Below, piece by piece: positions 4,689 to 44,537 of a DNA stretch of 62,043 nt (the first letter of the stretch is position 1; each line of letters starts with the position of its first letter). Source of the stretch: a virus (Duplodnaviria; Caudoviricetes); IMG/VR virus record IMGVR_UViG_3300003886_000003, positions 1-62,043 of that record; one strand, 5' to 3'. The notes under the pieces were generated by a model, which did no database searches, was not told where the DNA came from, and saw only the letters and a list, made by a program, of their open reading frames with translations. The translations under genes and the position numbers were made by a program.

Positions 4689-4951
4689 CAGTCTATTACC
4701 TCCCCGGCGCTATCGACCCAAACAGCCCTCGGTAGCGGCAACTGGGTAATCTGTTTAATGTGTGCTCGACCACGCTTGGTGGAGCAGTATATGGCTTGCT
4801 CGTGCTTCTCCGACTCCTGCTCATCACGCTGAATCAACCCGGCGCACAGTAGCCCTTCAATTGAGTTCTTAACCGCCGCACTGCCTTGCCGGGGGTGTTG
4901 AGAGGGTGAGACATGGCAGTGAATCAGTATCTCAATGTCGTTGGGTGTCAT
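4688..4951 (-). CDS. Hypothetical protein, winged-helix-like
   Basis: GGAG RBS; paralog of the downstream gene; Y..T.RG wing-like motif. Confidence 0.7.
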   Translation of the reverse strand: MTPNDIEILIHCHVSPSQHPRQGSAAVKNSIEGLLCAGLIQRDEQESEKHEQAIYCSTKRGRAHIKQITQLPLPRAVWVDSAGEVID

Positions 4952-4979
4952 GGTTTTCTCCAAGTTATTTTAATAGTGT

Positions 4980-5540
4980 AGTTGATAAGAATATCAGAGA
5001 TGAGGGGCGAATGGAAGCGGGATTGTGGGGTGGTTTGATGGTTGTTTGAGGGTTCGGGGAGAGTGCTATTGGGGTGCTATTGGGGTGCCAAGCTGACCGG
5101 GTTGTTGACGAATTACAGGGGGCTTGGAGGGGTAAAACGCGGGATTTTATATTTTGAGGTGCCCGCCGTAGGGGGCAAAATGGTTATGGTGGGAGGATTT
5201 TAAATTTTTGGATGGGGAGGTTGATAAGTTTGGTTGATTTTAGGTTTTTCGGGTATTTTCTGTTGCCCCCTGTTGCCCCTATATTCAAGGGTTTTGCCCT
5301 TTGATTTGCCCCTAGACTGATTTTTTAAGTTATTGATTGTATCTAATAATATTTTTAAAAGGGGTAGAAGGGGTAGAACTAGAAATATCTTTATATATAG
5401 TAAATGTTTTATGTCCCTACATAATTAGGTGACAAAGAAAATTCTGTATATATAAGGGTAGAACTTTTATTTTGCCCCCAATGCCCCCTAGCCTGTTTTG
5501 GTTGGTGACGAATGATGACGAATGATGGCCGGTCAGCCTG
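4980..5540. other. Putative replication origin (iterons plus AT-rich core)
   Basis: About 560 bp non-coding; clustered TTGCCC(C) and GGGTAGAA repeats around an AT-rich TATATA core; the same motifs occur in the primase gene repeat. Confidence 0.6.
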
Positions 5541-5544
5541 GGGG

Positions 5545-5775
5545 CTAAATGTTCAAATCCAGCCAGTCGTTCAGAGTGCCATCAAAATCACGTAATGTTT
5601 TTAGCAGCAATAACCATTCGTTTATTTCCCATGCGTGCTTGCCATCACTAGCGGCTGTATAGAGCACCTCAGCGAGTGAAGTGTGGCGTGTGGATGTCAG
5701 GACATAGGATAGTTGCAGATGGCCGTGAGCGCGCAGCAGGGGAACGCCTGTGAGTACCTGGGTTGCCATCAGCAA
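5545..5775 (-). CDS. Hypothetical protein
   Basis: ORF track; coupled to the upstream gene. Confidence 0.5.
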   Translation of the reverse strand: MLMATQVLTGVPLLRAHGHLQLSYVLTSTRHTSLAEVLYTAASDGKHAWEINEWLLLLKTLRDFDGTLNDWLDLNI

Positions 5776-6098
5776 TACCCCCGTGGTGTGTCAAGTACGC
5801 ATTGATAGGCGTCTATTTCCTGATTGTCTGGGTTGATAGCTGCCAGTGGATGAAACAGGCACATTCTGAGCGTGCCCTTGTCATGGGGGAATGGGTACGG
5901 GTTACAGGTGCAAAGCCGGTCAGCCATAATGCGGCGCTTCATTTCAGCGCGGCGCTCTTTTTCAGCGCTGTGTGTCTCACGTGAGCCGCAGTGTGGGCAT
6001 TTCGGCCATTTTGCGTACTGTTCTGGCAGTTTGTAGATTGTGAAGCGTGAGCCGCAGCCTAGAGCGCCACGGCTACAGCGCATCCTGTGCCTACTCAT
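5769..6098 (-). CDS. Cys/His-rich putative zinc-binding protein
   Basis: C..C, CPHCG and CTCNPYPFPH...C..H motifs. Confidence 0.65.
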   Translation of the reverse strand: MSRHRMRCSRGALGCGSRFTIYKLPEQYAKWPKCPHCGSRETHSAEKERRAEMKRRIMADRLCTCNPYPFPHDKGTLRMCLFHPLAAINPDNQEIDAYQCVLDTPRGYC

Positions 6099-6285
6099 CA
6101 GCGCCTAGCCAGTGGCGATAGCGCCCTATTGTGTTGCCATTGGTATCACGGATAGGGAAGTCAGACTCCTGTTCAACCACACGATCAGCGATATCTCGCA
6201 GGACGTTGTAAATGCCCCCTTGTATGCCCCCGTCAGAATCTTCAAAGGCGGCGTTGTCAGTGTTGAATGTTATCACTACTTGCAT
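6091..6285 (-). CDS. Hypothetical early protein
   Basis: GGAG RBS; MQVVITFNTDNAAFED...IRDTNGNTIG, a common small phage protein type. Confidence 0.7.
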   Translation of the reverse strand: MQVVITFNTDNAAFEDSDGGIQGGIYNVLRDIADRVVEQESDFPIRDTNGNTIGRYRHWLGADE

Positions 6286-6298
6286 TGTGTTTTCTCCT

Positions 6299-6607
6299 TC
6301 ACCATTGGTAGGTTCTAAGTTCAGGTACTTCCACGCCATCCCGGTCAAGCACAAGGTAGGAGCAGCCGTATTTTACAGCCAGGTCTATCAGTGAGATAAA
6401 TCCGTTACTAAACCCCGCCCCATTGCAGGCAGGAGCAACAATGTCAGGTGTCATTTCTGCCGTCAGGAAGATAATGAAGCCGTATTCAAAATTGACGACA
6501 CGGCACAGATCAAAACTTTGTTCTGTTGTGTCTTTAAGATAGTCGTTATCGACTCGCGTGATATGGCAGGTATTAATGACCAGCGCTTTTTCTATTGGGA
6601 GTTTCAT
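6299..6607 (-). CDS. DUF5983-like protein
   Basis: NTCHIT, EYGFII, GCSYLVLDRDG...L..YQW pattern. Confidence 0.55.
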   Translation of the reverse strand: MKLPIEKALVINTCHITRVDNDYLKDTTEQSFDLCRVVNFEYGFIIFLTAEMTPDIVAPACNGAGFSNGFISLIDLAVKYGCSYLVLDRDGVEVPELRTYQW

Positions 6608-6609
6608 GT

Positions 6610-6789
6610 CTAGCAGTTCCCTGTGTTGTCGTAGATAGGGTTTTCAGAATCGCTATTCAGGATGATACGGCATATTGGCCCCGCCGGGTCTTCATGCAAG
6701 CAGGCAGGAGTCATTATATTAATTTCCAATATGCCATCCGTATCCGATTTGTGTACAGTAATTTTAAAGTCTTTTGATTTGATTGTCAT
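6610..6789 (-). CDS. Hypothetical early protein
   Basis: CAACACA leader plus GAGG RBS before ATG 6789. Confidence 0.6.
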   Translation of the reverse strand: MTIKSKDFKITVHKSDTDGILEINIMTPACLHEDPAGPICRIILNSDSENPIYDNTGNC

Positions 6790-6833
6790 GGTGTGTGCCT
6801 CTTTGTGTTGCTGACGAATTGAGTGTGCCAGGG

Positions 6834-7508
6834 TTAGAAACAGTCTCTGAGTGTCCATGGTTCATCAATATAGCCTTGTGCCTCATCGTGCAGTTTCTGA
6901 ATTTCTATATTTACTTTAAGGATGGTGGCACTTAGCGCGTCGCTTTTTTTAGTTGCCTCTTCCCGCAATTCAGCGGCGCGAGTTTTTGCGTCCTCTTTCA
7001 TGGTGTATTCACATTCTTTTTCGGCGTCGAATTGTGCCCGGCCATCGGCCTGTACTGCCGCTAGGTGCAAGCCTTCATCAATGCCAGTGGTGTCTGTGCC
7101 ACCTTTTTCTCCCAGCACATAATCAAAGTCAATAAGTGCAGCGCTTTCCGTGCCTGACCACGTGTCACAGTATCCGATAACGTATACCGGGCATCCCTTG
7201 CGTGCTGGTAGTTGCCACACAGCACCCCGGTAGGTGTCAGCGTTACCGGAATCATTGCGGTTATACCAGCCCTTGTGTCCAAGCCGTATAATTTCATCGG
7301 CGTACTTGACAAAGCGCAGCCCCGATTTTTCAGTGCTTTCAATCCATCGCTTTTTAGTGTCTTCAATTTGTGGATTGTAGACACTGGCAGGTTTATGGGA
7401 GGTAACCGCCTTGTGTTTTTGACGAATCAAAGATAGTACAGCGCAAGCGGTCAAGTGTGGAAGATGGGCGCGTGTTGCTTTAAAGCGGGTATATTTGCTT
7501 GTGGTCAT
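6834..7508 (-). CDS. Hypothetical early protein
   Basis: 224-aa ORF with CACAACACAGGA leader. Confidence 0.75.
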   Translation of the reverse strand: MTTSKYTRFKATRAHLPHLTACAVLSLIRQKHKAVTSHKPASVYNPQIEDTKKRWIESTEKSGLRFVKYADEIIRLGHKGWYNRNDSGNADTYRGAVWQLPARKGCPVYVIGYCDTWSGTESAALIDFDYVLGEKGGTDTTGIDEGLHLAAVQADGRAQFDAEKECEYTMKEDAKTRAAELREEATKKSDALSATILKVNIEIQKLHDEAQGYIDEPWTLRDCF

Positions 7509-7532
7509 GGTGTGCGTTTCCTGTGTTGTGTA

Positions 7533-7622
7533 AATCCAGACAGCGCCCCCAATGTTTACAGCCAGTCACAACACAAGCCATCGGGGGTACTGTTTCGGGC
7601 TGTGTGCCCTCATCAGTGGATT
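7533..7622 (-). ncRNA. Type I hammerhead ribozyme HH1
   Basis: AAUCCA-CUGAUGA-GGGC(ACACA)GCCC-GAAA-CAGUACCCCCGAUG...CAUUGGGGGCGCUG-UC^-UGGAUU; full core and three stems; predicted cut between 7539 and 7538. Confidence 0.9.
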
Positions 7623-7692
7623 AATCCTGTAGCGCGAATGCCAGTATTATAAAGGCAAATACTAGCAGTGAGTATGTTTCTACCCCTGACAT
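7621..7692 (-). CDS. 23-aa hydrophobic peptide
   Basis: GGGGGG RBS; MSGVETYSLLVFAFIILAFALQD; stop overlaps HH1 stem I. Confidence 0.45.
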   Translation of the reverse strand: MSGVETYSLLVFAFIILAFALQD

Positions 7693-7708
7693 TTGATTAC
7701 CCCCCGTG

Positions 7709-7867
7709 TTAGTTGTTCCAGTCTTTGCAGCATCGTGTTGATAACCATAATTCGCCGTCAAGGTATGCCTGCCTGTATTCATTTAACATTTTAGCCGCTT
7801 CCTGGCGGGTTCTATATTCGTCAATTGTTTCCGTGACACCCTGGTATTTATAATTTATGTATGTCAT
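7709..7867 (-). CDS. 52-aa early protein (not in ORF track)
   Basis: CACAACACA leader; MTYINYKYQGVTETIDEY...CCKDWNN. Confidence 0.7.
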   Translation of the reverse strand: MTYINYKYQGVTETIDEYRTRQEAAKMLNEYRQAYLDGELWLSTRCCKDWNN

Positions 7868-7896
7868 GTTTCAAACCCCGCTTGTGTTGTGGTTTA

Positions 7897-7956
7897 AGTC
7901 TATACAATGCCCATCAGTGGGGCATTGTTTCACGCTTACGCGATCATCAGTAGACT
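7897..7956 (-). ncRNA. Type I hammerhead ribozyme HH2
   Basis: AGUCUA-CUGAUGA-UCGC(GUAA)GCGU-GAAA-CAAUGCCC(CACUGAU)GGGCAUUG-UA^-UAGACU; cut between 7903 and 7902; first stem II pair is U-U. Confidence 0.82.
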
Positions 7957-8389
7957 AAGCGGCTTTTATTTCTCTTAGTGTTTTGGGTTCAAAATACAGG
8001 TCAATTTCTATGCTGTGTTCTATCAGTTCATCAATTGAGATATACCCCAGCTCCCCACCATGGCCAAGATTAGCAAACCCGAAAGCCTGGAACTGTTTGT
8101 CTTTGTCTAATGGGTGATCGTCGTCTGATCCTGCATCTTTTTCCAGTATGTACCAGTCCATACCACCATTAAAATAATGCAGGTGTACAATGGCAGCGTC
8201 GCCCTTGCCATCTTGTTGGCAGGTTTTCGGCATGTCGGCAATGAGCGCGGCCAGCTTTACCACCTTGTCAAAAAAATATTGTTTTTCTTCGCCGTGAAAG
8301 GTGGAAGTAATTGCAGCCAGTTGGCGCTTGCTGATAAAAGGTTTAAGCGTGTTGATTGCCTGGTGTGCGTCTTGTATTGTGGATTCCAT
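7955..8389 (-). CDS. DUF2958-like early protein
   Basis: HYF..GMDWYILE.D...AFGFANLG..GELGYISIDEL...IEIDLYFEPKTL pattern. Confidence 0.65.
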   Translation of the reverse strand: MESTIQDAHQAINTLKPFISKRQLAAITSTFHGEEKQYFFDKVVKLAALIADMPKTCQQDGKGDAAIVHLHYFNGGMDWYILEKDAGSDDDHPLDKDKQFQAFGFANLGHGGELGYISIDELIEHSIEIDLYFEPKTLREIKAA

Positions 8390-8414
8390 GTTAATACCTC
8401 TGTGTTGTGGTTTA

Positions 8415-8474
8415 AGTCTATACAATGCCCATCAGTGGGGCATTGTTTCACGCTTACGCGATCATCAGTAGACT
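8415..8474 (-). ncRNA. Type I hammerhead ribozyme HH3 (identical to HH2)
   Basis: Same sequence as HH2; cut between 8421 and 8420. Confidence 0.82.
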
Positions 8475-8763
8475 AAGCGGCTTTTTTGAGGTCGGTCGGT
8501 TCCTGGGTATGCCATTCGCGGGTTTTTGTGTGCATCCATTTGCGTGCGATGATTTGCAGACCGTTGCCAGTGTCAACGCCGAACGTGAAGACAGTGTAAG
8601 CGCCATCAGTTCGGCGTGTGGTTGTGTGTTCCACTAATACCTCTGAGTTTTTAGCGCTTGTGCCGACTCTCACAGTAACATCGGCTGTATCTTTCGCACC
8701 ATAAGATTTTCCGGTTTTATATATGCAGGAATTGATAACGTTCCATATTGGGTATGATTGCAT
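8473..8763 (-). CDS. Hypothetical early protein
   Basis: CACAACACAACACAAGGA leader; MQSYPIWNVINSCIYK. Confidence 0.7.
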   Translation of the reverse strand: MQSYPIWNVINSCIYKTGKSYGAKDTADVTVRVGTSAKNSEVLVEHTTTRRTDGAYTVFTFGVDTGNGLQIIARKWMHTKTREWHTQEPTDLKKAA

Positions 8764-8797
8764 GATTGTTTTTCCTTGTGTTGTGTTGTGGATGGTA

Positions 8798-8826
8798 ATT
8801 TTATCAGATTTATTTGATAACTGCAA
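8798..8826 (-). promoter_or_regulatory. Sigma70-type promoter with internal inverted repeat
   Basis: TTGCAG-17 nt-TAAAAT; TTATCA-N8-TGATAA (8801-8820) fills the spacer. Confidence 0.6.
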
Positions 8827-8841
8827 TGGATTGTTGACGGA

Positions 8842-9180
8842 CTAGCTTAATTCTATATCAAGTGTGTTGCAAATATCATAAGCCAGGAATTGCGCCGCGC
8901 TATCGTCGTCGCGTTCCAGTAGTCGCCGAACTAACACGGTCAGCGATTCCATCGATATGATACAGTTTAATCGGTTTACCCATAGCGAATCATCATGGGT
9001 ATAACTGTCACCTCTTTCTGGAACGTAACAGGCTTCCAGGTGCCCATCAATTCCTTGATTGACAGCCATCATTATTGTGTCGATGTCCTCTCCCACCATT
9101 GTCATGGTATAGGCTTCACTTTGTGATTCCGTAATTAACTTTTTTAATTCGTTTGACCAATCGCCGCTATAGTATTTCAT
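8842..9180 (-). CDS. Hypothetical acidic early protein
   Basis: CACAACACAGGAG leader. Confidence 0.7.
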   Translation of the reverse strand: MKYYSGDWSNELKKLITESQSEAYTMTMVGEDIDTIMMAVNQGIDGHLEACYVPERGDSYTHDDSLWVNRLNCIISMESLTVLVRRLLERDDDSAAQFLAYDICNTLDIELS

Positions 9181-9238
9181 GGTTAATACTCCTGTGTTGT
9201 GTGTTGTGTTTTAAAAAATTGCAGCCAGTAAGGTAGAA

Positions 9239-9835
9239 CTACCCCCACTGGTCGGCCATCGCCAACGCTATGCCCGAATATGTCTCGCTTCGTAGCTTCC
9301 ATCGGTCAGCCGATGGGCCTAGCTTGTTCTGTCCGCTATCTGTCTGATTCTCCCAACGCGGTAAGCCATTGACTACTCGCGGGGGTATTTCTTCAGTTGG
9401 TTTTAAGTTTGGCAAACCCTTCAACCATAGCCCGGTTCGCTTGCTTGCATTGTGTCCAAACTGATAGGGCTGTATATACTGGTCGGCTTTTCTGATTCGC
9501 GTACCGATACAGCCTACCGGATTTTCAATGCAGACTTTTGGAATATGGCTGGAAAGACGAATTATATCATGGACAAATTGCAGCGCTTTTTCTGTTTTTT
9601 CTTTTCGTCCTGGGGTGCGACCATTCCAGTGTAACCCGCTACTACATAGGTATGTACAGGGTGGATGGATGATCAGCATATCCCATTCATGACGAATCAT
9701 TACTGATAGAACATCATCAACAATATGATATTTTGAATTGTTAAAAAGCAAATCGCATGACCAAGATTTATGGCCAGTCAGTCTAAAGGCATCGCGGACA
9801 ATTCCGCTATGTTCACAACCTATTAATATTTTCAC
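9239..9835 (-). CDS. Short phage DNA cytosine methyltransferase-like protein
   Basis: LIGCEHSG (motif I-like), HPPCT (motif IV PC), IENP (motif VI), KRTGLW. Confidence 0.75.
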   Translation of the reverse strand: MKILIGCEHSGIVRDAFRLTGHKSWSCDLLFNNSKYHIVDDVLSVMIRHEWDMLIIHPPCTYLCSSGLHWNGRTPGRKEKTEKALQFVHDIIRLSSHIPKVCIENPVGCIGTRIRKADQYIQPYQFGHNASKRTGLWLKGLPNLKPTEEIPPRVVNGLPRWENQTDSGQNKLGPSADRWKLRSETYSGIALAMADQWG

Positions 9836-9921
9836 TGGTTAAATTGTCCCCATTAAATAAGCAAAGCCTAGCGAGTATGTCGCAAAAATAATAAACATTA
9901 CTATTTCATCAGCTTTCATTT

Positions 9922-10179
9922 TTATATCTCGCTATTAACAATTTCAGTTATCAGGCTGTCCAGCATGTAGCAATATTCAATACCCGCCGTTGCTTCAGTT
10001 TGGCGACGGATATCACTTGCCTGTCTGATTGCGCGTTCAGTCACATTAAATTTACCATTGATGGGGTATAGGTGGCTTTCATCCTGTTCACGGTAAAGCC
10101 TGTTAATGCAGGCAATGTGTGCGTTGCCGTTAAGGTGATCGGCTTTGTCTGCTATTTGTAATGGTGTCAATTGTTCCAT
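9922..10179 (-). CDS. Hypothetical early protein
   Basis: CACAACACAGGAG leader before ATG 10179. Confidence 0.65.
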   Translation of the reverse strand: MEQLTPLQIADKADHLNGNAHIACINRLYREQDESHLYPINGKFNVTERAIRQASDIRRQTEATAGIEYCYMLDSLITEIVNSEI

Positions 10180-10249
10180 GTTTAGCGCTCCTGTGTTGTG
10201 CTGTGTTTTAATACAATAGCCCCCTTGCACAAGGCTATCATTTAAAACT

Positions 10250-10636
10250 CTAGCGGCCCATGTGAGATATAATGGCTTGTGCTGAGCATTTATAGCCATG
10301 TTTGCGCGTATCTTCCAGCATAATGCAGTTTTTAGGCTTTGCGGTATCAAGACCAATAATGGTAAATACCTTGTTATTCATTTTAACAATTTTTCCCAGC
10401 CATTCAGGGTTCAATTGATAGCTTGCTGCATACAGTTTGAAGTCGTCGCCATGTCTCCCCAGCCCGGTTTTTCCCTTGGTCTGAAATTCTATGGTCATTT
10501 TATAATGACTGTCACCATAGCTCCCAGACTTACGCGTGATAGTAATACCGTGCTCAAGCGCCAACTGTGTTAATAACTCCATTGTATCATCGCCGATTCT
10601 GTTTGCTGTCCGCTTGTCAAAGTTTTCAATTGTCAT
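10250..10636 (-). CDS. Hypothetical early protein
   Basis: CACAACACAGGAG leader. Confidence 0.7.
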   Translation of the reverse strand: MTIENFDKRTANRIGDDTMELLTQLALEHGITITRKSGSYGDSHYKMTIEFQTKGKTGLGRHGDDFKLYAASYQLNPEWLGKIVKMNNKVFTIIGLDTAKPKNCIMLEDTRKHGYKCSAQAIISHMGR

Positions 10637-10663
10637 GGTTAATACTCCTGTGTTGTGTTGTGT

Positions 10664-11023
10664 TTAGAAATACCCCTGATCAGGGTCATGCAATGATTGA
10701 AATAACTCATCATCATCGTATTTTGCATCTTTATTAAATGATAGCTTTGGTAAAATTTCCATGTCCCCCGACCAAAATAGTTTTATACCCCAGTCGCGTT
10801 TTTCTTCCTCTGTCATATTGGTTGTATCTTCGCTGTACGGGGAGTTTTGCTCTGCTATCCAGACATAAATATCTACCCCGCCGAATATGCCGTAGCCATC
10901 ATAGGCAGGTTCACATATCGGCGCACCTTTCGGCTGTATAAGATATACCGGCTTGCTTTCCCCGGTATGCTTGTTTCGTATTGGTTCCTGTGTATCGGCT
11001 GTAGTAAATGAAAAGAATCCCAT
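10664..11023 (-). CDS. Hypothetical early protein
   Basis: AAGGAG RBS; MGFFSF...YDGYGIFGGVDIY...DPDQGYF. Confidence 0.7.
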   Translation of the reverse strand: MGFFSFTTADTQEPIRNKHTGESKPVYLIQPKGAPICEPAYDGYGIFGGVDIYVWIAEQNSPYSEDTTNMTEEEKRDWGIKLFWSGDMEILPKLSFNKDAKYDDDELFQSLHDPDQGYF

Positions 11024-11036
11024 GGTGATTGCTCCT

Positions 11037-11303
11037 TTAGAATTGTAATGATGTTTCGCTAGTGCGTAAGTATTCAGGAACAAGGCTTTTTATGTCTGAA
11101 AACATAGCATAATAGTCGATTCTTCCAATTGTGCCGTCGTCAAATTCGTACGCGTACAACCAATTATGATCGCTGATAAATTTATGGATTATTGCGGTAG
11201 AATATGCCCCCGCCATAAATAGATTGTTATTTGCTTTTTGCATGGCCGTGTTTGCTACTCCTTCAGCTATGCTTTCAATTTCTATTTGATAGTCTGTAGT
11301 CAT
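11037..11303 (-). CDS. Hypothetical early protein
   Basis: CAACACAGGGG leader. Confidence 0.6.
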   Translation of the reverse strand: MTTDYQIEIESIAEGVANTAMQKANNNLFMAGAYSTAIIHKFISDHNWLYAYEFDDGTIGRIDYYAMFSDIKSLVPEYLRTSETSLQF

Positions 11304-11404
11304 GACGTACCCCTGTGTTGTAACGTTTTGAATACAATAACAATAGCCTTGATTAGCACGTAAGCGGCTAAGCCTGTTATAAGGGGATATATAGAATAGT
11401 GCAT
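11300..11404 (-). CDS. 34-aa single-TM peptide, first gene of the early operon
   Basis: CACAACACAGGA leader; MHYSIYPLITGLAAYVLIKAIVIVFK; ATGA overlap with next gene. Confidence 0.5.
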   Translation of the reverse strand: MHYSIYPLITGLAAYVLIKAIVIVFKTLQHRGTS

Positions 11405-11437
11405 TGATATACTTCCTGTGTTGTGCTGTGAGTTTTG

Positions 11438-11467
11438 AGAGTAACACAGGCAGTATACACTTTTCAA
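11438..11467 (-). promoter_or_regulatory. Putative early promoter
   Basis: TTGAAA-18 nt-TACTCT with extended TG; overlapped by AAGTGT repeats. Confidence 0.45.
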
Positions 11468-11886
11468 CACTTTTGTGCATTATCTTACACTTATTTACCT
11501 ATGAAAAAGTCGACACTTTTTTGCCCCCTTCCATATTTTCTGTATGATTTATGTGATGAATGTTAATATTCTATAGGTAATACAGCAAGTTACGCGTGCG
11601 TGTATGCGTACACCTTATAATAACACGCTCCCCGATTGCTGGTTATACCCTCCCCCCGGTACAAATTCCCCCCGGATATCGTGTTAGTGCGCGGCTGTAA
11701 ATTTTGGAAGCACTACCAGGGCGCGGGCTGGCTGGAAATTCCTGGTCATTCGAGATGAAAAGAGTCTCATACAATCGTGTCAGGCTGGGAACAGATATCG
11801 GGGGGAGCAAGGGCCGAGCCTATCTGATCCACCCTATCTCTCGGAGCTACAGAATTCCCGATCCCTGAAGGGAAGTCATCATATAT

Positions 11887-11950
11887 ATCTGATAAAAAAT
11901 TTTTATGCTATCCACAGCAAATCTGACAAAAATTTTTTATTATCCACAGC
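11887..11950 (+). repeat. Tandem imperfect ~31-bp repeats ending in DnaA-box-like 9-mers
   Basis: ATCTGA(T/C)AAAAA..TTTTAT..TATCCACAGC twice; TTATCCACA at 11940-11948. Confidence 0.6.
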
Positions 11951-12994: not shown

Positions 12995-14464
12995 ATGGCT
13001 CGTGCTACGTCCAAGTCGATTGACCAGACTGAGTTCGAGCAGAACCTCCTCGATGACATGGCGCAGTTTTATGATGACTTCCTGGGGTTTGTCTACTACG
13101 CGTTTGAGTGGGGGGTGGGGCAGTTAGAGGACATGGATGGGCCTGATACGTGGCAGGCCGAACAGATGCTCCGGGTAGCTGAGTGTGTCAAGCGTGACCC
13201 GGAGGGAACGATCAGAGAGGCCATCGCAAGCGGGCACGGGATCGGTAAGAGTGCGGAGGTGGCGTGGATCATCCTGTGGGCCATGAGCACCCGGCCCCAT
13301 TTGAACGGGGTGGTGACGGCTAATACAACGACCCAGTTGAACACCAAGACCTGGCGCGAGTTGGCGCTGTGGCACAAGCGGGCCATTAATGCACACTGGT
13401 TCAAGTGGACCGCCACCAAGTTTTTTCATATCGAGCACCCTGAGACATGGTTCGTCGCGGCAACGCCTAATACCGAGCACAACTCGGAGGCATTTGCCGG
13501 GCTGCATGGCACGCACTCTTTGATAATTTATGATGAGGGGAGCGGCATACCGGACAAGATTTATGAGGTGTCCGAGGGCGCGATGACTGATCCCAGGGCG
13601 ATGTGGTTCTTGTTCGGGAACCCAACGAAGAACACCGGTAAGTTTCGGAATGTGTTTGCCAACGATGCACGCTGGGTGACCCACCAGATTGATTCGCGCA
13701 CTTGTAAGATGACCAACAAGACCGAGATTGCTGCCCAGGTTGCGGAGTACGGGGAGGACTCGGATTTTGTGAGGGTCAGGATCAAGGGGCAGTTTCCCCG
13801 CATTGGTTCCATGCAGTTTATATCGAGTGAAGCGGTGGATCGCTGCATGTACTGGGAGGCACCGTATGAGAACTACTATTTGATGCCGATCATTGTCGGG
13901 GTCGATGTGGCACGCTACGGGGACGACAAGACCGTGATCATCGTGCGCCAGGGTCGTAAGATGTTGGAGATACGGAAGTTCATGGAGAAGAGCACCATGG
14001 AAGTGGTGAGCGAGGTCGTCAAGATCATCCGTGAGTACCGACCAGCGGCTGTGTTTGTGGATGGCATTGGTGTGGGGGCCGGGGTGGTTGATCGGCTGCA
14101 CCAGTTGAACCACGATGTGTTTGAAGTGATCGCCAGTCAAAAGGCAACAGATGAAGTGACCTACTATAACAAGCGCATTGAGATGTGGGACAGGATGCGT
14201 GCCTGGATAAAAGCAGGTGCCGACCTGCCCAACGACCCGGACTTGCGGGTGGCGCTGATTGGTATTGAGTACGGGTTTAATGACAAGGAGCAGATGCGCC
14301 TTGAGCGTAAACAGGACATGAAGAAGCGCGGGCTGAACTCGCCGGACGAGGCAGAGGCCATTGCGGTGAGCTTTGCAGAGTTTGTGGGTGAGGTTAATAT
14401 GAACTCATTTGAGCCGGTAGATAATTTTGAGCCGGGTGGTGAAGGGGACATGGAGGCAGCATGA
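12995..14464 (+). CDS. terL: Terminase large subunit
   Basis: Walker A ASGHGIGKS, Walker B IIYDE, GNP coupling motif, nuclease GVDVARYGDD, SPD. Confidence 0.95.
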   Translation: MARATSKSIDQTEFEQNLLDDMAQFYDDFLGFVYYAFEWGVGQLEDMDGPDTWQAEQMLRVAECVKRDPEGTIREAIASGHGIGKSAEVAWIILWAMSTRPHLNGVVTANTTTQLNTKTWRELALWHKRAINAHWFKWTATKFFHIEHPETWFVAATPNTEHNSEAFAGLHGTHSLIIYDEGSGIPDKIYEVSEGAMTDPRAMWFLFGNPTKNTGKFRNVFANDARWVTHQIDSRTCKMTNKTEIAAQVAEYGEDSDFVRVRIKGQFPRIGSMQFISSEAVDRCMYWEAPYENYYLMPIIVGVDVARYGDDKTVIIVRQGRKMLEIRKFMEKSTMEVVSEVVKIIREYRPAAVFVDGIGVGAGVVDRLHQLNHDVFEVIASQKATDEVTYYNKRIEMWDRMRAWIKAGADLPNDPDLRVALIGIEYGFNDKEQMRLERKQDMKKRGLNSPDEAEAIAVSFAEFVGEVNMNSFEPVDNFEPGGEGDMEAA

Positions 14465-41372: not shown

Positions 41373-44300
41373 ATGGCTGGACTCGCTACATGTATTCGTA
41401 AGGCTGGAAAAGCACTCAGCAGATCAGACGCTGATTCCATTCGTGAGATGCAGGGTGATTATATTGCAGATGGTATGTCAGGCACAGAGTCTGCTAAAAA
41501 AGCAGTTGGTGATCTGATAGGCATGGTCGAGCAAGAAAAATCTGACATCATAAAGAAAGTAACTAGAGCTGGTGGGGATACCCGTGCGCTTACCGGTGAG
41601 CTGTCATACCCGAAAGGCACAAAGCCAGGCAAGGCTTCTAAAAAGACAAAGACAAAACAACCGCTAAAGTATCGTCTTGATGATGAAGTGGTTGAAGATT
41701 TGATAAATGAAAAGCCACTTCACCCAGTTGCTCAAATGTATAAGGTTGGTATCTCTGTAGAGGAACAGGTTGAGAATAACCCTGGCATGTCTCCACAGCT
41801 TCTCAATAAAGCAAGAGGCATGACAGAGAACCAGTTCGAGAATTTCCTGGGGTTTATTCCGAGACAGTATCTTGCTGACTTTGGCAAAAAGATAACGGCA
41901 GTAAAAGAATACATCCGTGAAGCCTCTCGCATGGATGGAACGCGCAATGAGCTTATGGATGAGTTTGATAAGGTGATAAAGCCATGGAATAAATTTATTG
42001 CCAAAAATCCTAAGTGGGGACGGCTGCTAGGCACGATAATGCACGAGTCAACACTGGCTGAAGTTGATCCGTCGATGGAGTATAAAGCGCTCAAGAAACC
42101 GAAGAAAATAAAAGCAGATGATGCGTACTACAAGATAGACGCACTGCGCAGAAAGAAGCATAAAATTCTGCAGGATAGATTTAACGCTATGCCCACAGAC
42201 GCGCAGAAAATCTACACGTCTGTTCGTGACTCATATAAAACACAGCGTGCTCGTGTACACCAGCAACTGAGAGATAACATCTCCAACACTGACGTTGGGA
42301 CTGATGTAAAAGACTCCATGCTTGCACTGCTTCGTACAAAGTTTGAAGTAGGCAGAGTGAAGGGACCGTACTTCCCGCTAACCCGATTTGGTGAATTTTG
42401 GGGAGTAGCACGTGATGCAGACGGGAACATAATCTCTTTCAGCAAGTTTAACACCGGCCCGGAAATGCGTCAGTGGGTAGCGGATTTCAAAGCGTTGGGT
42501 AATGGGGTGACTGCAAGGGGCGGTAAGAAGATGGATGAAAAGTCTGTCATGAATCATATTGACCCCAGCTTTGTAAAAAAGATAACTGACTTGACACAGA
42601 ACATTGGTGGCATCCAGGGTAAGGAACTGACCGATGAAATCTGGCAGCTTTATCTCCGGTCAATGCCTGAGATGTCAATGCGCAAGTCGTTCATACATCG
42701 TGCTGGCAGGCTTGGGTTTAGCGCTGATGCTACCCGTGCTTACGCATACAATATGTTTCATGGCGCACACCAGTTAGCCAAACTAAAACACCTTCCTAAA
42801 ATGGAAGGACTCATGACTAAAATACGGGATCAAGCCAGTGAGCTTGAAAACACAGATGACCCCGATGGAAAGTGGGCGTCCCCGATATACAAAGAGATGG
42901 TCAAGCGGCACGACTTTGCAAAAAACCCCAAGGTCAGCCCCATGGCAACCAAGGCTACAGCATTCGGGTTTCTGTGGTTCCTGGGAGCAACGCCATCTGC
43001 AGCGCTTGTTAACTTAACTCAAAATGCAATTGTCGCATTCCCACATCTTAACGCTCGGTATGGTAAAGGTATCGATGGCGCAGGGCACGTTGCACAGTTA
43101 ATGAAAAAAGCCTATGGAGAATACTTTGGCTCAACTAAATCAATGGCTGACCGGTTACGAGGCGACGAGCATAAAGCGTTTATAGAAGCTGAGAAATCGG
43201 GCGTCTTTGGTAGAACACGGGGGCACGATCTTGCCGGTGTTGCCGAGGAAGGCATGACATACAACTCCAAGCAACGTCAGTTTATGGAGATGGCTTCTTG
43301 GATGTTCCATAAGGCCGAAGAGTCTAACCGGCAGATAACCTTCATGACCGCATACAGATTAGCGCGTGAAGCTAAAATGGATCATGAACAGGCGATACAA
43401 GCAGCGGAAGAAGATACCTTATTGTCACACTTTGATTACAGCGTTGCTAACCGCCCGCGCATACTGCAAAACAGCATGGCGAAAGTAATATTCCTGTTCA
43501 AGCAGTATTCAATGCACATGATATACCGCATGTCTCGTGATTTCTCAGATGGGTCAAAAGGCACGTTCCGTCAAGTTGGCAATAAGCTGGGACTGACTGA
43601 AAATGAGATACAGGATTTTGAGCAGGAAGCACGTAAGCGACTCGCCGGTATGCTTGGCGTTACTGCGCTGCTTGGTGGCATGTCATCGATGCCCTTGATG
43701 TGGGGTGCAATAGCAATCATGAATGCTACGATGGGCACAGAGGATGAGCCTTTTGATGCTGAAGTAGCAATACGGCAGTACATATCAGAAGCATTCGGTG
43801 GAGGTGAAACTGGGACTGAAGCCCAGGAGTTTATTTGGAAGGGGAGTGTAGACACTGTGTTTAATGCAACACTGTCATCCCGCATATCGCTCAACCAGTT
43901 ATTGTGGCGGTCACCCCCACCACAAAAAGAAGGTGATGAAGTATACTACCACTACCTGGGTGAACTTGTAGGCCCAGTATTTTCTGTAGCAAAAGATGTA
44001 GTAGAATCAAGCAAGCTGTTCTACGAGGGGCAGGCTGATCGTGGGCTTGAGAGGTTGATGCCTAAAGCCGGTAAGGATTTGCATAAGGCATTCAGGTACT
44101 TTAACGATGGCGCACAGAACTATCGTCAGATGCCCATCATTGCACCTGAAGCGTTCAATGAGTGGGATATATTTTTACAGGCAATTGGATTTGCGCCTGC
44201 AAGACTTACTCAGCAGCAGGAGCAAAACAGAGCAGTAAAAAACACAGAGCGATTCATTACAGACAGAAAATCGCACATTATGGATCGTCTGTTTATGGCA

Positions 44301-44537
44301 ATCAGGAACAGCGATCCAAGTTCTATTAAGGCGTACAAATTAAAAATTATAGCTTTTAATAAATCCAATCCTGGCATGGCAATTGATGTGTCTGCTATAT
44401 TTGCTTCCGCGAATGCCAGGAACGAGTATGACATGATGACACTCGGTGGCATAAATGTTAACAAGAAGCTGTTCTACCTGAATCAAAAACTTCGCTTCGC
44501 ACCCCGGTACGATAAAGAAGGGAACATTAAAAAATGA
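41373..44537 (+). CDS. PLxRFG-domain large internal virion/ejection protein
   Basis: GPYFPLTRFG motif; ALVNLTQ, E..NR..T...AY, FDYS..NRP, FKQYS. Confidence 0.85.
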   Translation: MAGLATCIRKAGKALSRSDADSIREMQGDYIADGMSGTESAKKAVGDLIGMVEQEKSDIIKKVTRAGGDTRALTGELSYPKGTKPGKASKKTKTKQPLKYRLDDEVVEDLINEKPLHPVAQMYKVGISVEEQVENNPGMSPQLLNKARGMTENQFENFLGFIPRQYLADFGKKITAVKEYIREASRMDGTRNELMDEFDKVIKPWNKFIAKNPKWGRLLGTIMHESTLAEVDPSMEYKALKKPKKIKADDAYYKIDALRRKKHKILQDRFNAMPTDAQKIYTSVRDSYKTQRARVHQQLRDNISNTDVGTDVKDSMLALLRTKFEVGRVKGPYFPLTRFGEFWGVARDADGNIISFSKFNTGPEMRQWVADFKALGNGVTARGGKKMDEKSVMNHIDPSFVKKITDLTQNIGGIQGKELTDEIWQLYLRSMPEMSMRKSFIHRAGRLGFSADATRAYAYNMFHGAHQLAKLKHLPKMEGLMTKIRDQASELENTDDPDGKWASPIYKEMVKRHDFAKNPKVSPMATKATAFGFLWFLGATPSAALVNLTQNAIVAFPHLNARYGKGIDGAGHVAQLMKKAYGEYFGSTKSMADRLRGDEHKAFIEAEKSGVFGRTRGHDLAGVAEEGMTYNSKQRQFMEMASWMFHKAEESNRQITFMTAYRLAREAKMDHEQAIQAAEEDTLLSHFDYSVANRPRILQNSMAKVIFLFKQYSMHMIYRMSRDFSDGSKGTFRQVGNKLGLTENEIQDFEQEARKRLAGMLGVTALLGGMSSMPLMWGAIAIMNATMGTEDEPFDAEVAIRQYISEAFGGGETGTEAQEFIWKGSVDTVFNATLSSRISLNQLLWRSPPPQKEGDEVYYHYLGELVGPVFSVAKDVVESSKLFYEGQADRGLERLMPKAGKDLHKAFRYFNDGAQNYRQMPIIAPEAFNEWDIFLQAIGFAPARLTQQQEQNRAVKNTERFITDRKSHIMDRLFMAIRNSDPSSIKAYKLKIIAFNKSNPGMAIDVSAIFASANARNEYDMMTLGGINVNKKLFYLNQKLRFAPRYDKEGNIKK

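Follow-up and report, generated by a model that had tools for sequence, protein, structure and literature searches.

The virus record IMGVR_UViG_3300003886_000003, analysed here at its full length of 62,043 bp (the window in what follows), carries three RNA elements that are probably genuine self-cleaving type I hammerhead ribozymes, of two designs, lodged in the intercistronic gaps of a leftward operon and acting as processing ribozymes. The window is a complete virus record with direct terminal repeats, the genome of a tailed phage. All three elements lie on the minus strand, which is the coding strand of the operon, in gaps between open reading frames (ORFs) and within a segment of 942 nt:

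Positions 7533 to 7622, minus strand: HH1, a type I hammerhead with a fully canonical core.
Positions 7897 to 7956, minus strand: HH2, a type I hammerhead identical to HH3.
Positions 8415 to 8474, minus strand: HH3, a type I hammerhead identical to HH2.

An earlier reading of this DNA, referred to here as the original prediction, described three complete CUGAUGA...GAAA...UH cores with three stems in each, and these cores, their minus-strand coordinates and the type I identification are confirmed. The conserved core is complete in every element and comprises C3, U4, G5, A6, N7, G8 and A9, followed by G12, A13 and A14, the A15.1-U16.1 pair and an H17 that is not G. Stems I, II and III contain 6, 4 and 4 or more bp in HH1 and 6, 3 and 8 bp in HH2 and HH3; stem I is open and stems II and III are capped by loops. 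The arrangement that defines type II, with an open stem II and capped stems I and III, is found in none of the elements of the window. In HH1, stem I (AAUCCA/UGGAUU, 6 bp, 7622-7617/7538-7533) is followed by CUGAUGA at 7616-7610, by a stem II of GGGC-ACACA-GCCC (7609-7597), by GAAA at 7596-7593 and by a stem III of 52 nt (7592-7541), with U16.1 at 7540, C17 at 7539 and the predicted cut at 7539/7538. HH2 and HH3 share a stem I of AGUCUA/UAGACU, a stem II of U-CGC-GUAA-GCG-U and a stem III of 23 nt, CAAUGCCC-CACUGAU-GGGCAUUG, with 8 bp. The segments of HH2 are CUGAUGA at 7950-7944, stem II at 7943-7932, GAAA at 7931-7928, stem III at 7927-7905, U16.1 at 7904, A17 at 7903 (predicted cut 7903/7902) and the 3′ strand of stem I at 7902-7897. 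Those of HH3 are the 5′ strand of stem I at 8474-8469, CUGAUGA at 8468-8462, stem II at 8461-8450, GAAA at 8449-8446, stem III at 8445-8423, U16.1 at 8422, A17 at 8421 (predicted cut 8421/8420) and the 3′ strand of stem I at 8420-8415. All three cuts had been expected at these positions, and they fall correctly at H17. A Watson-Crick 10.1-11.1 pair is present in HH1 (G-C) and absent from HH2 and HH3, which have a U10.1-U11.1 mismatch and a GUAA loop on stem II. Stem I was also expected to begin within the upstream stop codon, and it does so in each case at the second base, so that the last two bases of UAA 7623-7621, UAG 7957-7955 and UAG 8475-8473 are part of stem I. In HH2 alone, an upstream CCGCUU (7959-7954) can pair with a downstream AAGCGG (7882-7877). 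The pairing lengthens stem I to 12 bp, with 13 nt in an internal loop, and takes in part of the next gene's leader and ribosome-site region.

The cluster is far from what chance would give. Our own loose type I descriptor (stems of at least 4, 3 and 3 bp), run on both strands of the window, returned three matches, all at HH1, HH2 and HH3, compared with a mean of 0.01 in 300 dinucleotide shuffles, 297 of which contained no match and three of which contained one. Folded in isolation, the elements adopt the three-way junction as their minimum-energy structure (HH1, -35.5 kcal/mol, z = -3.0; HH2, -21.4 kcal/mol, z = -4.3). HH2 and HH3 lie in a perfect direct repeat, 100% identical over 85 nt with a spacing of 518 nt, the two copies of which are as follows:

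Positions 7883 to 7967, minus strand: copy 1, which comprises the final codons of the ORF upstream (..KAA*), HH2 and the leader CACAACACA.
Positions 8401 to 8485, minus strand: copy 2, with HH3 and the last codons of its upstream ORF, which also end in ..KAA*.

As HH2 and HH3 are exact duplicates, the window contains two independent designs and not three. The original prediction had argued for selection on structure from the entirely different stems of HH1 and of HH2 and HH3, built to the same architecture. A recent duplication or gene conversion around the phrog_5203 gene, which lies between the copies, seems to have carried the hammerhead unit along with a few bases of coding sequence.

Further evidence comes from hammerheads of the HH2 and HH3 type in other viral contigs. 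A pattern for a stem II with U10.1-U11.1, 3 bp and a GNRA loop occurred in 102 viral-contig stretches, and 80 loci were examined. Among the 83 pattern matches listed for these loci, 51 had a complementary 3-bp stem, compared with about 5% expected by chance. Our own descriptors assigned 37 of the 51 to type III, 10 to type I and 4 to neither, although several of the type I calls, spanning more than 100 nt, look by eye like mis-assigned type III elements, and only the compact ones are relied on here. A narrower pattern that adds an AGUNNA stem I gave ten stretches, namely nine hammerheads with four distinct sequences and one chance match. These nine have the form yUU-AGUxxA-CUGAUGA-U-NNN-GNRA-NNN-U-GAAA-stem III-UA-UxxACU-UAA, which is that of HH2 and HH3, and they are located right after a stop codon, 14-25 nt ahead of the next start codon. 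No viral contig contained the exact HH2 core. In genome contigs the family pattern gave one stretch, which was rejected as a chance match because it has no stem II and lies inside a coding region. Past the 6-bp stem I, the base on the 3′ side is U in HH1 and in all nine clear members of the HH2/3 family, and the opposite base is U with the exception of one C. Loop II contains A in each design (GUAA in HH2 and HH3, ACACA in HH1). In hammerhead crystal structures, a loop II A contacts a stem I U. An A-containing loop II together with a U after stem I would fit such a tertiary contact, of the kind that allows activity at cellular Mg2+.

A covariance model, R1, was built from six HH2-type sequences, with that of HH2 among them. 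It scores HH3, a copy identical to the HH2 training sequence, at 83.2 bits, and it recovers members that were not used in training: L163:6604-6658 (63.6 bits), L107:1373-1428 (36.2 bits) and L118:5968-6036 (32.8 bits). The L107 element shares the stem I but differs in having G10.1-C11.1 and a GUC site, so that in the phage with L107 one U10.1-U11.1 member and one G10.1-C11.1 member have the same stem I. R1 also finds HH1 (21.9 bits, E 0.038 in a 780-kb search), its sole match in the window besides HH2 and HH3. The alignment used for covariation has 16 rows, 14 of them distinct and 8 not in training. Cells of the proposed helices are paired in 98.4% of cases, compared with 63.2% (sd 2.5) in shuffles and 33-44% in slid controls, figures to be read with the facts that six of the 14 distinct rows built the model and that pairing is favoured by an alignment fitted to the structure of that model. 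Thirteen of the 15 pairs are altered on both sides, and the covariation score is 0.79 against 0.20, a value reached by none of 500 shuffles. This pattern indicates that compensatory changes keep the HH2/3 helices intact among unrelated phages. The unrelated AT-rich viral contigs L163 (6604-7998), L107 (1373-2586) and L140 (235-4904) also contain two or three type I hammerheads at intervals of about 1-3 kb, some with U10.1-U11.1 and some with G-C.

Relatives of the virus carry hammerheads of a different topology at the same place in the genome. A terminase search gave 45 related viral loci with 34-77% identity. The Rfam type II hammerhead model (RF02276) matched 4 of 24 related records at E<=0.001, three of them above the cut-off, and none of 14 control genomes; the matches, which further scans confirmed, are confined to the relatives, with none in the window. 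The relatives bearing type II elements have terminases 62-72% identical to that of the window, and their matches are distributed as follows:

G007, a 30.6-kb fragment: nine type II matches, six above the cut-off.
G012: three type II matches, two above the cut-off.
G004: one type II match, above the cut-off.
G019: one type II match, below the cut-off.

In G007, G012 and G004 (by locus coordinates), the type II elements are encoded a few kb upstream of the terminase and divergently from it, which is also the layout of the window. The nine-member array of G007 spans 6.7 kb (positions 2088-8764 of L075, which is G007:21500-30632), and several members have near-identical stem III sequences. Five elements begin between 2 nt inside and 1 nt past the stop codon of the listed upstream ORF, three begin 9-13 nt past the stop, and one follows a TAA without a listed ORF of at least 40 aa; every element ends just ahead of the next ribosome site. 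Loop I and the 3′ tail covary in this array (UAUCU/AGAUA versus AGUC/GACU), which fits the type II pseudoknot. The proteins of the window operon showed no homology at E<=1e-3 to those of the relatives' hammerhead arrays. One phage lineage has permuted topologies, type I in the window and type II in the relatives, at the same operon position, which argues that selection acts on cleavage itself and not on a single RNA lineage.

The 144-aa phrog_5203 protein has relatives of 46-58% identity in 2 viral and 10 metagenome loci (L065 and L067 are on the same contigs as the two viral loci), and the 224-aa protein encoded past HH1 (6834-7508) gave none in a search for homologous loci. Since the flanked genes share no detectable homology and the phrog_5203 relatives show no convincing hammerhead, the ribozymes appear to track the operon position and not particular genes.

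Several results weigh against active hammerheads at these sites. The check proposed with the original prediction, a search with the Rfam hammerhead models, came out negative: the whole window gave 0 matches at gathering scores, E-value mode yielded nothing more than partial alignments to Hammerhead_3, scoring 15.2-15.7 bits where the cut-off is 48.5, and the type I model RF00163, with a gathering cut-off of 34 bits, gave no match in the window at E<=1. The type I descriptor found no HH1 homologue (0 matches in 521 kb from 47 related loci), and no convincing hammerhead accompanies the phrog_5203 relatives in their 2 viral and 10 metagenome loci, with nothing from Rfam in the 10 metagenome loci. 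Stem II of HH2 and HH3 has only three G-C pairs, and RNAfold favours a shifted five-pair register in HH2 that uses G12 and A13. In contexts of 403 nt and 476 nt, RNAfold also favours, by about 7.5 kcal/mol, a long-range helix that disrupts stem III of HH1. By our own reading of the aligned rows, the shifted register of HH2 is impossible in some family members, for example L098. The miss by RF00163 is probably due to its 45 model positions, which penalise stem III inserts of 23 nt and 52 nt. Type I phage hammerheads with such long stem III inserts are overlooked by standard Rfam annotation. RF00163 and RF00008 gave nothing above their cut-offs in the window and the 24 related records, and E-value scans showed nothing but weak partial Hammerhead_3 alignments in 7300-8700, with no other ribozyme class there or in 4900-11700. 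Among the phrog_5203 loci, a very lax descriptor gave no more than matches with stems of 2-3 bp in L004.

Rfam scores far under the cut-offs, the U-U mismatch and short stem II of HH2 and HH3, and the putative status of any tertiary contact would also suit motifs that do not cleave, or cleave too slowly to matter, and that persist as stable 3′ hairpins or as repeated DNA. The 85-nt copies, 100% identical even in the last codons of the upstream ORFs, look like a recent duplication or gene conversion, and recombination between them could add or remove the phrog_5203 gene. We consider this improbable, given that all catalytic core positions are intact in the three elements, that HH1 is fully canonical and that the pairing of the HH2/3 family is held by compensatory changes across unrelated phages. 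The U-U in place of the usual G-C at the start of stem II, pointed out in the original prediction, is indeed present in HH2 and HH3; Perreault et al. (2011, PMC3088659) describe U10.1-U11.1 as a natural variant and the best-tolerated mismatch, with activity kept.

The reading as active processing ribozymes leads to a simple scheme for the operon, in which the cluster flanks a single gene (7955-8389) and a two-ORF block (7621-7867). The ORFs concerned are, in the direction of transcription:

Positions 8473 to 8763, minus strand: ORF of 96 aa that ends in HH3; no family match.
Positions 7955 to 8389, minus strand: ORF of 144 aa between HH3 and HH2, matching phrog_5203 (function unknown; E 5.8e-23); no Pfam family.
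Positions 7709 to 7867, minus strand: ORF of 52 aa, the first gene past HH2.
Positions 7621 to 7692, minus strand: ORF of 23 aa, a hydrophobic peptide MSGVETYSLLVFAFIILAFALQD, ending in HH1.
Positions 6834 to 7508, minus strand: ORF of 224 aa, the first gene past HH1, whose leader after cleavage would be 30 nt.

Pfam and PHROGs assigned no function to the hammerhead-flanked genes. While the polycistronic RNA is being made, each element would fold into its three-way junction and cut itself after C7539, A7903 or A8421, giving a 2′,3′-cyclic phosphate and a 5′-OH. Four units would result: the upstream genes with HH3; the phrog_5203 gene with HH2 (8420-7903, 518 nt); the 52-aa and 23-aa ORFs with HH1 (7902-7539, 364 nt); and the downstream genes. 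The downstream units would start with a 5′-OH and a leader of 31, 35 or 30 nt bearing a CA-rich tag and the ribosome site. As a consequence of the type I topology, the upstream unit would keep the whole ribozyme at its 3′ end, where stems II and III would form a hairpin cap with a cyclic phosphate. RNase E is not stimulated by 5′-OH ends, and 3′ ends with structure or a cyclic phosphate withstand exonucleases; both kinds of end would be expected to influence stability. The analysis demonstrates the anatomy of the motifs, their non-random occurrence, the covariation of the HH2/3 family and the type II counterparts of related phages, whereas cleavage, the single transcript and the effects of the ends on stability or translation are what we infer.

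HH3 and HH2, identical type I hammerheads that face the same way at a distance of 518 nt, might do more than separate units. Viroid-like and retrozyme RNA repeat units carry direct-orientation type I hammerheads in the same topology, and the excised phrog_5203 unit would retain both strands of stem I, so that its self-complementary ends might be ligated to a circular mRNA, with either an RtcB-type ligase or reversal of the hammerhead reaction making the joint. In another version, the 5′ product of HH3 might be joined to the 3′ product of HH2, removing the gene at the RNA level. We regard either outcome as very improbable. The length of 518 nt is not divisible by 3 and a stop codon closes the ORF, so that no endless reading frame would arise. 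Spliced or circular products were raised as a possibility by Perreault et al. (PMC3088659), who report that neither was detected.

The leaders of the operon share a further element that is connected with HH1 through its stem III:

Positions 6620 to 11424, minus strand: the span of nine copies of the leader motif ACAACACARG, each just upstream of an early-gene ribosome site.
Positions 7880 to 7891, minus strand: CACAACACAAGC, part of the leader of the gene that starts at 7867, close to the 5′ end of the 364-nt fragment predicted between HH2 and HH1.
Positions 7567 to 7578, minus strand: anti-leader GCUUGUGUUGUG, in the apical part of HH1 stem III, complementary to early leaders.

The nine sense copies are at 6620, 7520, 7881, 8775, 9191, 10190, 10647, 11312 and 11415. 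In total the motif has 10 matches in the window, compared with 0.37 expected, and none of 100 shuffles reached 10. This CA-rich tag may be a translation enhancer or a recognition tag. The tenth match, located at 7568-7577 within the apical portion of stem III of HH1, is the only antisense copy in the genome. The anti-leader is a perfect complement to 8 of the 14 early leaders over at least 9 nt: over 12 nt for the gene at 7867, which opens the unit closed by HH1, over 11 nt and 10 nt for two others and over 9 nt for five more. As a stand-alone statistic, the 12-nt match was rejected, since the same 6.1 kb contains five perfect inverted repeats of at least 12 nt.

These complementarities raise the question of whether HH1 is a switch, in which the stem III anti-leader would pair with the leader of the first gene of its own unit, or would act in trans on the nine tagged early leaders, so that folding of the ribozyme and access to the ribosome site would be mutually exclusive. 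Such a switch would couple cleavage to translation, or would shut early translation as the cleaved 3′ end accumulates. In the 364-nt unit, RNAfold places the 12-bp anti-leader/leader helix in the minimum-energy fold with pair probabilities of 0.95-0.99, and in the two precursor contexts the alternative fold is more stable than the enforced HH1 fold (-101.3 versus -93.7 kcal/mol with 403 nt and -127.4 versus -120.1 kcal/mol with 476 nt). Minimum-energy predictions of long-range pairing in RNAs of 400 nt are unreliable, however, and local hairpins usually form first during transcription. The observation of the anti-leader was made post hoc, long perfect inverted repeats are not rare in this operon, HH1 has no homologue in which loop and leader could be seen to co-vary, and HH2 and HH3 have no such complementarity. 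A switch is accordingly only a doubtful possibility on our estimate, if a less remote one than inactive motifs or circular products. If true, the self-cleaving HH1 would double as a translational timer or sensor of the early operon, in cis within the 364-nt unit or in trans as a stable 3′-terminal ribozyme. HH1 offers a concrete, testable link between the folding of a ribozyme and the leaders of neighbouring genes.

The operon that contains the processing ribozymes consists of about 16 small minus-strand ORFs, running from about 11.4 to 5.5 kb with short gaps and divergent from the structural genes, and most of them are without a family match in Pfam or PHROGs. Besides the phrog_5203 ORF, those with a match are:

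Positions 9239 to 9835: DNA methyltransferase-like protein of the leftward operon, by family match.
Positions 6299 to 6607: DUF5983 ORF of the leftward operon, by Pfam match.

The original prediction spoke of early cistrons. Both this term and a single polycistronic transcript are suggested only by the gene layout of same-strand ORFs with short gaps. Promoter-like sites numbered 21 against 19.9 in shuffles, a scan no better than chance. The minus strand has no terminator-like site inside the ORF run of about 11.4-5.5 kb. In the intercistronic gap at 10206-10250, also on the minus strand, there is a plain hairpin, AUAGCC...GGCUAU, with no ribozyme and no Rfam family match. Past the operon, at 4990-5545, a non-coding stretch of about 550 nt contains a cluster of GGGGCAA-type repeats, with 5 of the 13 copies in the window at 5172-5478; an origin and a protein-binding array are two possible roles for this cluster. 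A direct repeat at 11896-11950 (23 nt, 83% identical, 32 nt apart), in the intergenic region from which the leftward operon and the structural genes diverge, ends in TATCCACAGC and may be an operator. Elsewhere, the window encodes a terminase (12995-14464), a portal, a major head protein, a DNA polymerase, a helicase, an exonuclease and a primase, as well as a 1054-aa protein (41373-44537) that matches the DarB-like antirestriction family phrog_10089 (E 3e-161). No close cultured phage was found in the GenBank phage set, where the top terminase identity is 49.6%, and the DNA of the region gave one 147-nt chance-level match in GenBank phages and nothing beyond it.

Clusters of this kind have been described before. 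Perreault et al. (2011, PMC3088659) reported clustered hammerheads that flank genes in prophages and proposed that long phage RNAs are processed into operon- or gene-length mRNAs; three tandem arrangements were cleaved during in vitro transcription, the triple arrangement of Agrobacterium was cleaved in E. coli, and all three hammerhead topologies were found to be common in bacteria. The arrangement in the window is therefore not new, as gene-flanking clusters, the idea of mRNA processing and natural U-U variants have all been in print since 2011. A review of 2019 (PMC6765202) describes the processing role as suggested but still in need of work. The finding is a further clean example of hammerheads punctuating a phage operon, a layout whose physiological purpose is unproven according to that review. 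As in the clusters presented by Perreault et al., for example the triple hammerhead around ardA of Agrobacterium tumefaciens, several elements are on the coding strand within 1 kb, they are intergenic, they lie on either side of one gene or a short group of genes that lack conservation, and U10.1-U11.1 variants occur. Unlike those presented there, the window is a lytic-looking 62-kb metagenome genome with terminal repeats and not a prophage; its elements are all type I, two of them form an exact 85-nt repeat, and stem III of HH1 contains an antisense copy of the leader tag.

The elements of the window resemble the type II hammerheads (RF02276) of the relatives in their operon position divergent from the terminase, in their packing from the stop codon to the next ribosome site and in the junction nucleotides CACUGAUGAG, CGAAAC and GUC-UG. 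The type II elements are circularly permuted, so that each product retains part of the ribozyme and the stem I hairpin opens the downstream mRNA, whereas the ribozymes of the window would stay whole on the upstream product; a pseudoknot is not evident in the window, and the flanked genes are non-homologous. The putative anti-leader of HH1 resembles the c4 RNA of P1 and P7 (Rfam RF01695), in which a hairpin loop is complementary to a private tag before the ribosome sites of many of the phage's own genes. The HH1 loop, unlike that of c4, is part of a ribozyme helix. The early polycistronic mRNA of T7 is processed by the host RNase III, which leaves 5′-phosphate and 3′-OH ends. In T7 as in the scheme proposed here, intercistronic structured elements split an early transcript into units with a protective 3′ hairpin, but a hammerhead needs no protein, and its ends are a 5′-OH and a 2′,3′-cyclic phosphate. 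The suggestion in the original prediction of a host-independent analogue of T7 RNase III processing is thus a reasonable deduction and a fair restatement of the hypothesis already put forward by Perreault et al. (PMC3088659).

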